A DNA stretch of 39,539 nt from a virus. The notes beneath the pieces were generated by a model, which saw nothing but the letters and a program-made list of their open reading frames with translations, had not been told where the DNA came from and searched no databases. The stretch lies in the IMG/VR virus record IMGVR_UViG_3300033552_000025, positions 1 through 39,539 of that record; one strand, 5' to 3'. The first letter of the stretch is position 1. Each line of letters begins with the position of its first letter. Shown here piece by piece: positions 6,725 to 34,181 of the stretch. Made by a program: the position numbers and the translations under genes.

Positions 6725-7006
6725 TTAGTAGCTCAGAACCCGCAGCACCCCGGCGCGCTCGTTCCGCTCCCACTGGTACGCATCGGCGGCAGCTTCGGTA
6801 CGCTGCTGCTTAGCCTCCCGCGCCAGCCGTGCATCAGCTATCTCGCCCATGCTCAGCAACGTTGCGCGGCCAAACAGCATCGTCAGGTCTATCGCGCTAT
6901 CAGCAGCAGTAACGATTTCAACTTCGCAGCCGTCTTCGTCTCGGCTCCCGTACAGGTTCAGCAGCAGGCCGTCGTGGTCGTATGAGCGGATGGTGAAGGC
7001 GGTCAT
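6725..7006 (-). CDS. Hypothetical protein, 93 aa; first gene of the leftward early operon
   Basis: AGGAG RBS 6 nt upstream, and the gene lies immediately downstream of the PL-like promoter. Confidence 0.55.
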   Translation of the reverse strand: MTAFTIRSYDHDGLLLNLYGSRDEDGCEVEIVTAADSAIDLTMLFGRATLLSMGEIADARLAREAKQQRTEAAADAYQWERNERAGVLRVLSY

Positions 7007-7055
7007 GGTCTACTCCTGTTCGTTGGCTCGTTTGCTGCGCTGAGCTGATGTATGA

Positions 7056-7084
7056 ATAATATCCCACCGATGGGATATACGCAA
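7056..7084 (-). promoter_or_regulatory. PL-like early-left promoter (TTGCGT-N17-TATTAT on the minus strand)
   Basis: The -35 is the reverse complement of 7079..7084 and the -10 is the reverse complement of 7056..7061. The 17-nt spacer contains an operator. Confidence 0.6.
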
Positions 7085-7097
7085 CCCATTTATGGGA
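7062..7097. promoter_or_regulatory. Operator pair OL: TCCCAccgaTGGGA (7062..7075) and ACCCAtttaTGGGA (7084..7097)
   Basis: 14-bp inverted repeats spaced 22 bp start to start. The same motif and spacing occur at 9065..9100. Confidence 0.65.
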
Positions 7098-7193
7098 TTT
7101 ATGGCCGAAAATCTATATACTCAATAGTTATATTGACGCGCTGTAACTATGGTATTTTTCGTACCAGTTGATTCATCGCTCGCAACCGCAGGC

Positions 7194-7217
7194 AAAAAAA
7201 TACCCGCTCAGGGCGGG
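7194..7217 (-). terminator. Rho-independent terminator (minus strand)
   Basis: On the minus strand, a CCCGC/GCGGG stem is followed by TATTTTTTT. Confidence 0.7.
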
Positions 7218-7240
7218 CTTAGGGAGGGGATGAGGGGCGC

Positions 7241-7269
7241 AAAAGCAAAGGCCCCACCGAAGTGAGGCC
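7241..7269 (-). terminator. Rho-independent terminator (minus strand), 8-bp stem with UUCG tetraloop
   Basis: Minus strand reads GGCCTCAC-TTCG-GTGGGGCC followed by TTTGCTTTTG. Confidence 0.7.
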
Positions 7270-7357
7270 CAGAATGTCGCTGCACGGGTTAGCAAGTCCG
7301 CAGTGCAGAGGCCTCTTGCGAGGACTTCAGCCTGATGCTAAGGCAGCGCAGGAACGG

Positions 7358-7717
7358 TTATGGTACAAAAATCTTCAATAGCGATGGCAGAAGTTGGGCG
7401 AGGAAAATTGCACTCACAACCCAAATAATGATGGACACTTTAGCCTCTGCGATGTCCGCCTTTAGGCCACCCTTGACTTCGGATAGGTCCGCCTTTGTCC
7501 CCATGCGCAACTCACCCATTACACCTTTCAATTCGGCTATATCAGACTTGGTAGCTCCATTGGCCTTAATCACCGCGACATCGATCTTGATGGCAGTGAT
7601 ATCGGCTTCGAGCTTGGCTACGCGTGCTTCCATGTCGCCATCATGCGGCGGACCGCCACCAATGTCAACCACCCCGCCAGGCGAATACTCAGAACCATCA
7701 ATTCTGCGGATCGACAT
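7358..7717 (-). CDS. Coiled-coil, C-terminally membrane-anchored protein, 119 aa (DUF1640-like heptad repeats)
   Basis: AGGAG RBS. The repeats KLEADITAIKIDVAVIKAN...KSDIAELKGVMGEL...KADLSEVKGGLKADIAEAK are followed by a TM segment IIIWVVSAIFLAQLLPSLL. The locus is AT-richer than the rest of the genome. Confidence 0.65.
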   Translation of the reverse strand: MSIRRIDGSEYSPGGVVDIGGGPPHDGDMEARVAKLEADITAIKIDVAVIKANGATKSDIAELKGVMGELRMGTKADLSEVKGGLKADIAEAKVSIIIWVVSAIFLAQLLPSLLKIFVP

Positions 7718-7934
7718 TGACGGCTCCTAAGGTGCGCGCGGTCCACTCTGGATCGTCGTCAAAAAACTCCGTATATCCACAATGCACGCATGTGTAAATT
7801 TCACCAACAAATCTCATGTCAATATCGTCATCAGCAACAAAGGAAAACTTTATATTCTTTCCGGTCGTCGGGTTAGGCCCATTGATCAGATGTAGTGCAC
7901 CATGCCCGTATCGGCAGGTAGGATCAACTTTCAT
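7698..7934 (-). CDS. Small zinc-ribbon-like protein, 78 aa (C..H ... CVHCGYTEFF)
   Basis: ATG at 7934 with an AAGGAA RBS; the track ORF starts at an upstream GTG. The C-terminal CxxCGYxEFF motif resembles the Zn-ribbon family. Confidence 0.6.
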   Translation of the reverse strand: MKVDPTCRYGHGALHLINGPNPTTGKNIKFSFVADDDIDMRFVGEIYTCVHCGYTEFFDDDPEWTARTLGAVNVDPQN

Positions 7935-7968
7935 ATTTCCTTTCACTCCCCGCGCCTACCTGGGCGGG

Positions 7969-8166
7969 TTATTCAACTTCTACCGAGGATGGGCAGGAGC
8001 CTTCATGAATTTGCCAAAACTTCTGACCGGCGTAGTTGTATTCGCATTTCCACATCCACTTGTAAGTGACGGTTTGAACCTGCTCTTGGCGACCCGTCCA
8101 AAAAGCCGTTGCAGCGTACGCTGGCGCGGCAACAGCAATTACCACTAATATCCATAGCTTTTTCAT
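7969..8166 (-). CDS. Small secreted protein, 65 aa, with a Sec-type signal peptide (MKKLWILVVIAVAAPAYA|A)
   Basis: GGGGGA RBS, a classical n-h-c signal with an AxA site, and two Cys in the mature part. Confidence 0.65.
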   Translation of the reverse strand: MKKLWILVVIAVAAPAYAATAFWTGRQEQVQTVTYKWMWKCEYNYAGQKFWQIHEGSCPSSVEVE

Positions 8167-8206
8167 GTAATCCCCCTTATTCGGCCAGAAGGCGGGCCGT
8201 TGCGCC

Positions 8207-8236
8207 GTTATATTTGGAAATATTGCGAATCGTCAA
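8207..8236 (-). promoter_or_regulatory. Sigma70-like promoter for the 3-gene cassette (TTGACG-N18-TATAAC, minus strand)
   Basis: The -35 is the reverse complement of 8231..8236 and the -10 is the reverse complement of 8207..8212. It lies about 40 nt upstream of the 8166 start. Confidence 0.5.
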
Positions 8237-8590
8237 TAATCATTCTGATCGGGTAAAAATCACGCATATACACTATTTATTTCTAACGTGCAATATCACA
8301 AAAACACTGTTACACTCGAATGTCACGCAATGTAAATTGCCTTGCACCAACTCAGCGACGGGCGTAATTTGAGACTGCGCCCCAAGAAATGTCGCTGACC
8401 TCTTGGCCCCGAAACCCCGCGCCAAGTTGTCAAATGAGAGTGCCGCCAGATGTACGCGGGTTAGTAGAGCCAGCTTGACCCCATCGTCCACGCCTAGAAA
8501 ATGCACAGACAAATTGATAATGAAATGCTCGCCCTTTTTGCCTCGATTAATGATGACGCCCAAGCAGAAGTATTGAAATTTGTCAGAGCT

Positions 8591-9040
8591 TTACGAATGC
8601 GTCATCCCCGGCGTCTTACCCTTGTCGCTCCCTGCGCCCCGCAGTCGGTCCCGAACGTTATCAGCAGCGATCTTGAACATCTCGCCTTCAATGTCGTTCG
8701 CATGCCTGAACATCGTAAGTAGCTCGCGTTCGTCCGCGTTCCTTGCCAATGGGTCAAGGGAGTCGGCAAACGGTATCGATTCGGTAGGTGTTGGCTGTGA
8801 TGATGCTGCCGCCTGGTGTTCGGCGAGTAACTGAACAACCGAAACGCCCAGCGCAGCTGCAAGCTTTTCCACTGTGTCGAGCTTCGTGGATACCTCGCCC
8901 TTCTTGACGCGGTCGATTGTTCCAGTTCCCACGCCCGAGCGCTTGTGCAATTTTGCGATCGTATCTAAGTCCGGGTTTTTCTGCATGAGATCGGACAGAT
9001 TCGCAGCCAGTATTTGTTCTAGTGTCATTATTTTTCTCAT
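8591..9040 (-). CDS. CI-like repressor, XRE-family HTH, 149 aa, with no S24 peptidase domain
   Basis: The HTH segment is LMQKNPDLDTIAKLHKRSGVGTGTIDRVKKGE..LDTVEKLAAALGVSV. The gene is divergent from the cro-like gene with operators between them. The start is MRKIMTLEQ (9040) or MTLEQ (9028); the longer track ORF would run through the operators. Confidence 0.8.
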   Translation of the reverse strand: MRKIMTLEQILAANLSDLMQKNPDLDTIAKLHKRSGVGTGTIDRVKKGEVSTKLDTVEKLAAALGVSVVQLLAEHQAAASSQPTPTESIPFADSLDPLARNADERELLTMFRHANDIEGEMFKIAADNVRDRLRGAGSDKGKTPGMTHS

Positions 9041-9064
9041 GACGGCACTTTGCCGCAAATAGCG

Positions 9065-9100
9065 TCCCATTTGTGGGTTGCATAAATCCCGTTTATGGGA
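9065..9100. promoter_or_regulatory. Operator pair OR: TCCCAtttgTGGGT (9065..9078) and TCCCGtttaTGGGA (9087..9100)
   Basis: Same inverted-repeat motif and the same 22-bp spacing as at 7062..7097. Confidence 0.65.
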
Positions 9101-9106
9101 TATTCT
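9078..9106 (+). promoter_or_regulatory. PR-like early-right promoter (TTGCAT-N17-TATTCT)
   Basis: The -35 is 9078..9083 and the -10 is 9101..9106. An operator fills the spacer, mirroring the PL arrangement. Confidence 0.6.
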
Positions 9107-9113
9107 GCAATCT

Positions 9114-9347
9114 ATGACTACCAAAACCATTCCCCGTGTCGAGTTTGTAGTGAGCCGTTTGCGCGCTGCAATGCCTCGTTTATGGCCCGAGATCGCCAAG
9201 CAAAGCGGCGTACCGGAAAAAACCATCTGCAAGATTGCTTACAGGGAGACAAAAGACCCCCGTACCAGCACGACCGAAGCGCTTCACGACTACTTTGACG
9301 CGCAGGACAAGCCCACCAAACGCCGCGCCCAAGTGACGCCGCCTTGA
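9114..9347 (+). CDS. Cro-like small DNA-binding protein, 77 aa (possibly leaderless)
   Basis: First ATG downstream of the PR -10, at about the predicted transcription start. Position and size fit Cro, and LWPEIAKQSGVPEKTICKIAY is HTH-like. Confidence 0.5.
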   Translation: MTTKTIPRVEFVVSRLRAAMPRLWPEIAKQSGVPEKTICKIAYRETKDPRTSTTEALHDYFDAQDKPTKRRAQVTPP

Positions 9348-9447
9348 CACATCAATGTGTCCAGGTGCTTTGTTGCGCCTGAAAAGTTGCAGTAAATCAA
9401 TTGACTACCCGAACCATTCCTGAAACCCGCACCACTAGGAAAACACA

Positions 9448-32255: not shown

Positions 32256-34181
32256 ATGGCTACTTTTCTGATGCCCCCGGCGCGGCAACGCGGCTGGTCG
32301 AACTCTGGCGTGCCTGCTGCCAACTGCCTGCTGTACACGTATGAGGCTGGTACGACCACGCCTAAAGCGACGTATCAGGATGCAGCCGGAACGATCCCGC
32401 ATACCAACCCGATTGTGCTTGATGCCAAGGGCGAAGCGCTGATCTATTGGGACGGCAACTACCGCATTGACTTGCGTACCGCTGCTGGCGTGCAGATCAC
32501 TGGCTACCCGGTAGACAACTTTGAAACGCCTCTTATGGCATCGTCGCTGCTTGGCGGGGCAGGCGGCGGGATGATTGGCTTCAGCTATGGCAACACGTAC
32601 GGCGTCGGCACCCTCGCCCGCTGGCTGCAAGACTTGCTGCTCTCTGCTGGCGCGTCGTTTATCGGCTTCATCCAGTCAGGCGTTGGCGCTATCCTGCGCA
32701 CGATGCAGGACAAGGGGCGCGAGAATGCGACGCTGTTCGACTTCATCCCGAGCGCGCAGCACGCTGCTATCCTGGCAGGCACCAGCACCTACGATTGCAC
32801 CGCTGATGTGGTTGCGGCCTTTCTCGCGCATAACGTGGTTACGGCAGGCCCGGGGCGTTTCAATGTGTCCACGTTCAACCTCGCGGCCAACAAACATTTG
32901 CGGACGGCTGGCAAGGCGACCACGTTTGCACAGATCGCCGGTACACCACTTGGGACGCGGCCAATAAATATTGTTGGGTCGAATGTCTACGTCGGCACAA
33001 TGACCGTGCGCGGGAATATTGCAACCGACACGAACGAACAGAACCATTTCGTTTTCTGCCAAGCGACGGCAGCAACCGGGAACCTTTCCAATATTGTAGT
33101 CGGTGACATTGACGCCTACGACATTCGCGGTGATGCGGTGTATTTCGGCGCAAACTCGCCCAATACCCTGACCGGCTACAAGGCTGGGCATATCTACGGC
33201 GACAACATCCTGCGCAATGTGGTTTCGGTGTGTGGTGGCACTAGTGGCGAAATCCTATCGATCACTTGCGGCAGGACCGGGCTTACCGCGCTGGACGTTG
33301 AACCAGAGCCATATAATCAACCAGTAACAGGGCTTCGCGTCGGCTTCGTAAAAGGCCGCTCGGTTCAACTTGGCGCATCAAGCGCAACATCTCCTATCTC
33401 CGGCGTCGAGATTGGAACGGTGCTTTGCGACCCTGCTTTCTCGGCACCATGCGTCCCTGCGTACGCTGTGGGAGCAACCCTCAAAGATGGCTTGAGCCTT
33501 CGCAATGTCAAACATGCTCGTATTGAGCATTGCGAGATTAACGGCTTCGACCGTTGCGGCATATTTGAAACCTTTAACGTTAGCGAGATTGGCGCAAAAG
33601 TTGAATTTGGATACCTTTCCCTTACCAATTGCTCGCTAAATGATGCCGTTTATTCGGCCTACGCCCTGGTGTCGTCCGGTGCCCTGACGATTGAGCGGTT
33701 AGCAGGTGCGGTAAGTGTCACTGGCAAAGCTATGTTTTCATCGCTTAATAATAGCCATATTGACAGCGCAAATGTCACGCTGGTGGCTGGGTCGCAGTTT
33801 ATAAAGTCGTCCAACCATTGCTCCATCAAAAATGGCGTGATTACGGGCGGACTGATGCTCTCCGGTTGCACGTATATCCAAGTCAAAGACGTACAGTTTT
33901 CAGGCGAAATCCTCGCCAACTTCTGCACTAAGCTGACCTTCGATTCGGTGATTGCTACCGGAAGCACGTACGTTTTCAACGGTGCGAACGAACTGCACGC
34001 CATTGTGAATAGCACCCTTGGCGGCGTCTACTACGGCGCTGGCCTTACGGGGCGCTCCTACCTCAACACCATCCATTTCGGCACTTATGAACTGTGGGTG
34101 GACGCCACCGGCAAGCTGCGCATCAAGGGTGGCATCCCAACAACCGACCTCGACGGCACTGTCGTCGGCACTCAAACCTAA
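32256..34181 (+). CDS. Tailspike / tail fibre with a right-handed beta-helix (pectate-lyase-like) body, 641 aa
   Basis: The N-terminal adaptor pattern (YTYEAGTTTPKATYQDAAGT..HTNPIVLDAKGEALIYWDGNYRIDL) is common in phage fibres. The rest has a repetitive beta-helix-like character. Confidence 0.8.
   Translation: MATFLMPPARQRGWSNSGVPAANCLLYTYEAGTTTPKATYQDAAGTIPHTNPIVLDAKGEALIYWDGNYRIDLRTAAGVQITGYPVDNFETPLMASSLLGGAGGGMIGFSYGNTYGVGTLARWLQDLLLSAGASFIGFIQSGVGAILRTMQDKGRENATLFDFIPSAQHAAILAGTSTYDCTADVVAAFLAHNVVTAGPGRFNVSTFNLAANKHLRTAGKATTFAQIAGTPLGTRPINIVGSNVYVGTMTVRGNIATDTNEQNHFVFCQATAATGNLSNIVVGDIDAYDIRGDAVYFGANSPNTLTGYKAGHIYGDNILRNVVSVCGGTSGEILSITCGRTGLTALDVEPEPYNQPVTGLRVGFVKGRSVQLGASSATSPISGVEIGTVLCDPAFSAPCVPAYAVGATLKDGLSLRNVKHARIEHCEINGFDRCGIFETFNVSEIGAKVEFGYLSLTNCSLNDAVYSAYALVSSGALTIERLAGAVSVTGKAMFSSLNNSHIDSANVTLVAGSQFIKSSNHCSIKNGVITGGLMLSGCTYIQVKDVQFSGEILANFCTKLTFDSVIATGSTYVFNGANELHAIVNSTLGGVYYGAGLTGRSYLNTIHFGTYELWVDATGKLRIKGGIPTTDLDGTVVGTQT

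Follow-up and report, generated by a model that had tools for sequence, protein, structure and literature searches.

We examined the 39.5-kb contig of the IMG/VR virus record IMGVR_UViG_3300033552_000025 (positions 1 to 39,539, hereafter the window), which belongs to a lambdoid temperate phage of ~57.5% GC with called genes that include those for DnaB, NinB, SSB and a Lar-like protein, and focused on three small genes of its immunity region, named here g1, g2 and g3. All three are carried by the minus strand, the strand of the repressor gene, and are bracketed by two pairs of palindromes that read as the left and right operators (OL and OR). From OR to OL, the minus strand bears the repressor gene, a gap, g1, g2, g3 and two terminator hairpins. 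The three genes lie in the interval between the repressor gene and OL/PL, that is, in the slot equivalent to that of rex in phage lambda, as the first-pass annotation of this DNA had proposed. Its three open reading frames were confirmed at 7969–8166 (g1, 65 amino acids), 7698–7934 (g2, 78 amino acids) and 7358–7717 (g3, 119 amino acids), and each is preceded by a Shine-Dalgarno site: AAGGGGGA ahead of g1, AAGGA ahead of the g2 ATG at 7934, and AGGAG ahead of g3.

The product of g2 displays the two knuckles of a putative zinc ribbon, C7-x3-H11 and C49-x2-C52, the latter within the sequence CGYTEFFD. The gene was taken at one stage for an orphan, as a word-indexed protein search returned no homologue; this view was dropped when an exhaustive HMMER search found 61 relatives, all of them small proteins. 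An alignment of 57 sequences shows P5, C7, Y9, C49, C52, G53, Y54, E56, F58 and D59 to be invariant and H11 and G12 to be nearly so, with H11 kept in at least 90% of them. The AlphaFold2 model, with a predicted local distance difference test score (pLDDT) of 89.7, is a three-stranded ribbon, and together with the conserved ligands C7, H11, C49 and C52 it bears out the Cys/His zinc-ribbon character assigned at first sight. When the model was compared with the PDB, the best match had E = 0.3 and the listed matches were generic zinc ribbons throughout, with no RexA among them; the g2 profile retrieved nothing relevant from the PDB sequences. The closest Pfam family is Zn_ribbon_13/DUF2082 (PF09855), which g2 matches with 15.7 bits (E = 0.017) against a gathering score of 23 bits, and similar sub-threshold matches are given by 48 of the 57 relatives, the best with E = 8.5e-4. 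The two share the C-terminal CxxCGYTE(F/L)(F/Y) knuckle and four metal ligands arranged in two knuckles, whereas the N-terminal knuckle of g2 is of the C-x3-H type (PxCRYGHG) instead of CxxC, and all matches stay below the gathering score. No above-threshold Pfam match and no NCBIfam or PADLOC match was obtained for g2. Translated searches with this gene gave a single match in the phage collection, Paraburkholderia phage IPK, and none in the plasmid collection.

The g3 protein is composed of a variable N-terminus, the motif GGGPPHDGDMEARVAKLE, a coiled-coil region and a C-terminal transmembrane anchor formed by residues 96–114, which is its single hydrophobic segment (mean Kyte-Doolittle hydropathy 2.33), in agreement with the heptad repeats and C-terminal anchor first recognised in it. 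It matches phrog_3556 (9e-14) and has 238 homologues, many from Oxalobacteraceae and some named CCDC90 or DUF1640. Family members share the same layout, in which the variable N-terminus is followed by the motif GG-x-PP-x-D-G-x-ME-x-RV-x-KLE, by one to nine repeats of the ATKADIAELR type and by the C-terminal anchor, so that the length of the stalk varies with the number of repeats. The repeats of g3 itself contain the β-layer-like sequences GATKSD and GTKADL (G-A-T-K-S-D and M-G-T-K-A-D). A β-layer motif, [aliphatic]-A-T-K-[polar]-[D/E], has been described at the start of the stalk in DUF1640 membrane proteins (PMC4786415), and the g3-family profile matches the α/β coiled-coil construct 5APZ of Tcar0761 (E = 0.0015) as well as PDB entry 6H9L (E = 0.0048). 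Tested directly against the DUF1640 family PF07798, g3 gives no match at E ≤ 1, and it reaches no Pfam threshold; precomputed PF07798 matches are present in the longer homologues P0006–P0008, P0011, P0014 and P0020. Taken together, these sequence features place g3, as we read them, in a DUF1640/CCDC90-like family. With the family of DUF1640/CCDC90 (MCUR1) proteins it has in common the coiled-coil stalk and the C-terminal anchor, and its repeats resemble the A-T-K-x-D/E ones of the β-layer type (PMC4786415); it differs in being much shorter, in having a conserved N-terminal motif of its own and, for the phage versions, in being coupled to a small upstream partner. No NCBIfam family was matched by g3, and a translated search of phages returned no match, probably due to the low-complexity filter.

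The two genes are tightly arranged: the ATG of g3 sits 20 nt inside the end of g2, an overlap that indicates translational coupling. When viral contigs were scanned with the g2 alignment, 16 loci were obtained, all of which carry an open reading frame for a coiled-coil, single-pass membrane protein starting at or across the g2 stop codon. The g3 profile recognises this downstream frame in 14 of them; those of the other two are coiled-coil frames with the same N-terminal motif. The pair is also found in four bacterial genome loci (L046–L049), from metagenome-assembled genomes of Aalborgicola, a Methylophilaceae bacterium and Rhodoferax and from Noviherbaspirillum humi, as well as in the cultured Paraburkholderia phage IPK, and a contig of another sample (L057) carries an identical g2–g3 pair. 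Altogether, g2-family genes at about 23 distinct loci precede, in every case, a single-pass coiled-coil membrane protein, and a g2-type gene without such a neighbour was never seen. In the 24 downstream proteins checked, there is invariably a single hydrophobic segment near the C-terminus.

The converse scan of the viral contigs, with the g3 motif, revealed 39 further loci where the stop of a small gene meets the start of a g3-family gene. The small partners fall into three classes, namely the g2 family (9 loci), proteins of 90–133 amino acids with two CxxC knuckles (11 loci) and cysteine-free proteins (the remainder). A double-CxxC partner stands beside close g3 homologues in Massilia antarctica (L052) and on a JGI contig (L053). 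The anchored coiled coil is thus the constant component of the module and the small partner its exchangeable one.

The pair usually lies 0–2 genes 3′ of a gene for a repressor of the CI/LexA type. Among 20 upstream same-strand open reading frames, hand-picked as likely repressors, 11 match Peptidase_S24 and 10 match HTH_3. In a second, independent set, which comprised the two largest upstream same-strand frames of each of 27 loci (54 frames), there were 10 Peptidase_S24 and 12 HTH_3 matches; repressor genes with either domain are found upstream in roughly half of the related loci. At the other end, a canonical intrinsic terminator is located at most 170 nt past the g3-family stop in 38 of 47 loci, compared with 8% for random windows of the same loci, and several related loci carry tandem terminators, as the window does. 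Given its association with repressor genes and the terminal terminator, the pair systematically comes last among the cargo of the repressor operon. This signature of coupling, post-repressor position and terminal terminator recurs at more than 45 loci, mostly on temperate-phage contigs and in prophages, many of them of Betaproteobacteria. Conserved co-occurrence, which the first-pass annotation had envisaged for all three genes, therefore holds for the g2–g3 pair, which recurs in the same slot of many temperate phages, and not for the trio.

At roughly one related locus in three, the repressor gene and the partner–g3 pair are separated by a gene whose product is exported or a lipoprotein, as they are by g1 here (L030 3611–3970, L035 3597–3944, L040 3084–3920, L044 3533–3931, L047 4046–4699, L052 2872–3669, and L061, L067, L082 and L090). 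These intervening genes are non-homologous across most loci, with a GxDTYS motif common to the lipoproteins of L035 and L044, and the exported proteins upstream of other pairs had no informative Pfam match. This may mean either that envelope cargo was stacked in one slot on repeated occasions or that a loose functional link exists. In L037, L038 and L058, nothing intervenes and the pair directly follows the repressor gene.

The remaining gene, g1, encodes a small protein with a Sec-type signal peptide, made up of an n-region (MKK), an h-region (LWILVVIAVAA, Kyte-Doolittle 3.06) and a c-region with an AxA site (PAYA/A), which is followed by a mature domain of 47 amino acids. Its 79 homologues are ~66 amino acids long. 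In an alignment of 41 of them, the N-terminus is hydrophobic and variable up to the A-x-A site and the mature peptide is strongly conserved, as expected for the clean Sec signal noted initially. The mature consensus, ATAFWTGRQEQVQTVTYQxAWxCEYNYAGQxFWRxFxxSCPSSVEVQ, holds two invariant cysteines, which probably form a disulfide bond. Longer relatives have lipoboxes in place of the signal cleavage site. The AlphaFold2 model of g1 (pLDDT 88) is a four-stranded β-meander with no significant match in the PDB or BFVD (none below E = 0.08), and the g1 profile shows no similarity to any entry among the PDB sequences. Searches of Pfam, PHROG, NCBIfam and PADLOC gave no family match, and translated searches of the annotated phage and plasmid collections gave none either. 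The earlier statement that none of the three proteins is a described defence component is upheld by PADLOC-DB 2.0, in which g1 and g2 match nothing and g3 reaches a chance-level similarity to JetB (E = 0.06).

The homologues of g1 are found in several kinds of neighbourhood. In L005/L012 and L011, a g1-type gene lies 3′ of a helix-turn-helix or repressor-like gene, on the same strand and ahead of the early-left operon. In L005, the interval that separates the g1 homologue from the repressor gene encodes a 79-amino acid protein, which was considered as a possible g2 relative and proved to be unrelated. In L014 (3503–4147), L021 (3644–4147), L026 (3446–4147) and L027 (3587–4216), the g1 domain forms the C-terminal ~48 residues of lipobox-containing lipoproteins of 167–233 amino acids, whose genes stand 3′ of CI-like genes; it also ends a 128-residue lipoprotein fusion in L018/L019 (L018 3761–4147), where a repressor-like gene was not identified. 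The N-terminal parts of these fusions had no informative Pfam match. Peptidase_S24 was detected in 5 of 25 scanned open reading frames neighbouring g1 homologues, and at five loci where a g1-type gene comes last after a repressor-like gene, a terminator follows it. Other g1 homologues adjoin tailspike or tail-fibre genes, and one is part of an island with DUF4062, ArdC and SNase genes.

Several further observations were made around these homologues. In L001–L004, a homologue with 80% identity over two-thirds of the protein (L001 4001–4201) accompanies genes for unknown proteins of 169 and 136 amino acids and a ParE/antitoxin pair. This islet is inserted between two T2SSE ATPase genes, presumably pilT and pilU, near proC and a yggS-like gene, and this version is present on 51 contigs of environmental assemblies. 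In L024, a gene with a pilin-like N-terminal methylation motif (N_methyl, 2401–2997) lies ~1 kb upstream of the g1 homologue; one report describes prophage-encoded pilin-like proteins as anti-phage factors (PMC12952977). The window itself has a 641-amino acid open reading frame at 32256–34181, probably for a tailspike or tail fibre, whose N-terminus is ~62% identical to the products of frames L010 2304–2501 and L028 3727–3921, which, on two further phage contigs, are oriented head-to-head to g1 homologues.

Neither g2 nor g3 occurs beside the g1 homologues in 29 g1 loci, and conversely, apart from the contig of the window, g1 is missing from all of the ~70 g2/g3 loci (L030–L101). The proposal that the three genes form one module is contradicted by these distributions. 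To judge by its neighbourhoods, g1 is an independent mobile gene that moves between phages and islands.

The base composition sets the three genes apart from the rest of the phage. The GC content of the segment is 0.514, against 0.575 for the window, and the ten 1-kb windows of lowest GC in the contig all start within 7301–7751, with a minimum of 0.485, ~3.8 standard deviations under the mean of 0.575 (standard deviation 0.0235), so that the AT-richness noted previously stands out genome-wide. At third codon positions, the GC content of the three cargo genes is 0.46–0.54, below the values of the repressor gene (0.62) and of the adjacent early gene (0.73). The cargo genes are compositionally foreign.

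The cargo ends at two consecutive intrinsic terminators on the minus strand, as initially described. The first (7239–7270, hairpin 7270–7249) has a 9-bp stem, GGGCCTCAC / GTGGGGCCT, closed by a UUCG loop and followed by TTGCTTTT; the second, distal one (7192–7218, hairpin 7218–7202) reads GCCCGC-CCTGA-GCGGGT, followed by ATTTTTTT. Both hairpins end in a T-run and both were also detected by an independent terminator heuristic. An Rfam scan of 6900–9400 returned STnc100 alone, at chance level (18 bits versus a gathering score of 47). Between g1 and g2, a spacer of 34 nt contains a GC-rich imperfect hairpin, CCCGCC-caggta-GGCGCGGG (7940–7966, minus strand), without a T-run, which could be a remnant of a former g1 3′ end or an RNA-processing site.

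At the 5′ side of g1, the minus strand does carry the promoter-like sequence TTGACG-N18-TATAAC from which the first-pass annotation had deduced a promoter of the cassette's own. It is positioned at 8208–8237, one base off the place first given, and can be regarded as a weak candidate: the −10 hexamer ends in C where a T is conserved, the promoter scan did not report the site, and the region holds 2 promoter-like sites against 2.9 in shuffled sequences. Of the moron architecture suggested on this basis, the foreign composition and the terminator of the cargo stand, and the autonomous promoter lacks support from the scan. The interval between the repressor gene and g1 contains no predicted terminator, so expression is more simply explained by transcripts that run on from the repressor promoter. 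The best σ70-like match of the region, TTGACA-N17-CATGAT (10/12 positions; 7640–7668, minus strand), falls inside the 5′ part of g3 and is probably due to chance.

The boundaries of the immunity region are formed by the two operator pairs. The putative OL comprises two 16-bp palindromes, ATCCCA-N4-TGGGAT, at 7061–7076 and 7083–7098 with a spacing of 22 nt, and marks the left boundary, the early-left operon starting at 7006; the putative OR comprises two such palindromes at 9064–9079 and 9086–9101, between the repressor gene and a divergent cro-like gene. These four sites are the only ones in the whole window when up to two mismatches are allowed, with just two on each side, and a 45-nt inverted repeat (7053–7097 versus 9065–9109) encloses both pairs. 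The repressor gene (8591–9028, minus strand, 145 amino acids) encodes an HTH_3/HTH_26 domain and would be the first gene of the presumed immunity transcript; its ATG at 9028 has no obvious Shine-Dalgarno sequence. The cro-like gene diverging from OR, which matches phrog_9425 (5.5e-18), is called as 77 amino acids from an ATG at 9114, ~10 nt past TATTCT, a −10-like sequence overlapping the second operator of OR; given this short distance, its mRNA may be leaderless or nearly so. The gap without a called gene between the repressor gene and g1 (8167–8590, 424 nt) is the stretch of lowest GC (0.467), and it contains no operator and no predicted minus-strand terminator. It shows a patchy resemblance, with an offset of 366 nt, to the part of the repressor gene that codes for the helix-turn-helix (8434–8456 versus 8800–8822, and 8528–8545 versus 8894–8911). 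The idea that the gap is a decayed copy of the repressor gene is unsupported, as the protein comparison gave E = 4.9 despite this similarity in the DNA.

Among known systems, RexAB is the nearest in organisation. RexAB are two-gene exclusion systems with a membrane effector, located just 3′ of CI in lambda and in the Pseudomonas putida prophage P1, where RexA is a clamp-like, cytoplasmic DNA-binding protein with the fold of PDB 8TWQ and RexB has four transmembrane helices (PMC12894663). Like RexAB, the g2–g3 pair is a two-gene unit that lies 3′ of a CI-type repressor gene and shares its strand; of its two products, one is predicted to be cytoplasmic and the other to reside in the inner membrane. 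In the window, the pair ends at terminators ahead of OL/PL. Homology is absent, however: g2 is a 78-residue zinc ribbon in which a RexA-like fold was not encountered, and where RexB has four helices, g3 combines a long coiled coil with a single C-terminal transmembrane segment. Both structural comparisons were negative, and the pair resembles RexAB in organisation only. RexAB-type systems are further characterised by the exclusion of superinfecting phages through depolarisation of the membrane. The overlapping exclusion genes of Pseudomonas phage Fc02 (PMC9936078) were also considered and are unrelated, as they lie upstream of the repressor gene and use alternative reading frames.

The three genes can likewise be compared with morons of the HK97/HK022 type, with which they share the foreign composition, the insertion between conserved genes and the 3′ terminator; they differ in that their own promoter is a weak candidate and that it is simpler to regard them as an extension of the repressor operon. 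As for g1, phages are known to encode small exported proteins or lipoproteins for superinfection exclusion, such as Llp of T5 and Cor of phi80 and N15. Similarly, g1 is small, exported and endowed with cysteines, and its relatives are often lipoprotein fusions, in slots expressed in the lysogen or next to tail-fibre and tailspike genes, but it differs in resembling no PDB entry in sequence or fold.

Our preferred reading, held with about even confidence, is that the segment is accessory cargo of the repressor operon, with two evolutionarily independent units stacked in the rex-equivalent slot, of which the g2–g3 pair is likely an exclusion module. We infer that the cargo would be transcribed in the lysogen, probably by read-through from the repressor promoter and possibly also from its own weak promoter, up to the tandem terminators just ahead of OL/PL. 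The most likely site of action of the g1 product would be the lysogen's periplasm or envelope, where it might, for instance, mask or block a component on which an incoming phage depends. The g3 protein is predicted to be a trimeric α/β coiled coil attached by its C-terminal anchor to the cytoplasmic face of the inner membrane, and g2, as a small zinc-ribbon protein of the cytoplasm, would probably bind g3 and confer specificity on it. The pair would most likely exclude or abort the infection by other phages at the membrane and would thus be a functional analogue of lambda RexAB, not a relative. Phage exclusion appears the most likely role for both units because of their position by repressor genes and, for g1, also by tailspike genes; exclusion genes are typically found by genes of these two kinds.

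Several points weigh against this reading. Any lysogenic-conversion function would fit a location in the rex slot. Close g3 homologues are solitary in Oxalobacteraceae chromosomes, with neither a partner nor a surrounding prophage (CCDC90/DUF1640-like genes at L054 4001–4345, L098 5001–5444 and L100 5001–5459), which implies a function of the coiled-coil protein for which both g2 and a phage are dispensable; g3 may be a scaffold rather than an effector. In the Aalborgicola genome (L046 2782–5499), the pair follows two tandem SPFH/stomatin-like genes and an NfeD-like gene and precedes lgt, with no prophage genes nearby. The autonomous promoter of g1 is weak and no better than chance. The roles of g1 and g2 are unreadable from their folds, that of g2 being similar to generic zinc ribbons alone and that of g1 to nothing. 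Finally, no close relatives were retrieved from INPHARED by megablast, whether with the region or with 24.5 kb of the window as query, and a repressor-based scan of viral contigs for relatives of the phage returned one distant locus only; the collections contain no close relative that would show presence or absence of the cargo among sibling phages.

A wider generalisation of the exclusion reading, which we put forward as tentative, is that modules of a partner and a g3-type protein make up a widespread prophage family of two-component, membrane-associated anti-phage systems, in which the trimeric DUF1640-type coil is constant and the small sensor or adaptor is exchangeable, g1 representing a separate family of periplasmic exclusion domains.

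The alternative that survives best, although we consider it rather unlikely, is lysogenic-conversion cargo unrelated to defence, in which g1, g2–g3 or both would alter the envelope or physiology of the host, such as its stress tolerance, surface or membrane organisation. The housekeeping-looking chromosomal members of the g3 family, the pair located beside the SPFH/NfeD membrane-scaffold genes and the occurrence of g1 in non-phage islets are all in line with it, whereas the strong and repeated tie of the pair to the 3′ end of repressor operons, and that of g1 to repressor and tailspike genes, argue for the exclusion reading.

A toxin–antitoxin pair that stabilises the prophage by addiction, with g3 as the membrane toxin and g2 as the antitoxin, would account for two small, coupled genes of which the upstream one varies and the downstream one encodes a conserved membrane protein. 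It is improbable: the solitary chromosomal homologues of g3 lead us to down-weight it, the family searches matched neither g2 nor g3 to any toxin or antitoxin family, and known membrane toxins are short and hydrophobic, unlike the long coiled-coil stalk of g3. A role of g2–g3 in modulating the lysis–lysogeny switch or the induction of the phage itself is very improbable. The pair does belong to the repressor operon, as far as co-transcription can be presumed, the repressor is mostly of the CI/LexA S24 type, and RexAB of lambda is reported to influence the lysogenic-to-lytic transition; yet the pair has no DNA-binding or protease-related domain and also exists in the non-prophage chromosomal context of L046. 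Least probable of all is a single three-component system in which the exported peptide cooperates with the zinc ribbon and the anchored coiled coil, since the adjacency of the genes on one strand, their shared terminators and the frequent, though non-homologous, exported or lipoprotein gene just upstream of partner–g3 pairs elsewhere are outweighed by the separate distributions of g1 and the pair, by the loci where the pair directly follows the repressor gene and by the presence of g1 next to tailspike genes and in islets.

The preferred reading, exclusion cargo of the repressor operon, builds on what is already known of lysogen-expressed cargo beside repressor genes, and phage genes in this position have repeatedly proved to be anti-phage systems, as for RexAB and BstA. 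What is new are the gene families and the conserved module, which are absent from the descriptions in the libraries searched. In the literature searched, we found no function for bacterial DUF1640 members, no paper linking DUF1640 or DUF2082 to phage biology and none mentioning DUF2082. The slot of this phage holds families without a described function, one of which has a clear and reproducible genomic signature. The pair is amenable to testing, with Paraburkholderia phage IPK and the prophages of Massilia antarctica and Noviherbaspirillum humi as cultured sources. If active, it would provide a small, modular sensor-plus-effector architecture to dissect and the first function for bacterial coiled-coil membrane proteins of the DUF1640/CCDC90 type, the relatives of mitochondrial MCUR1.

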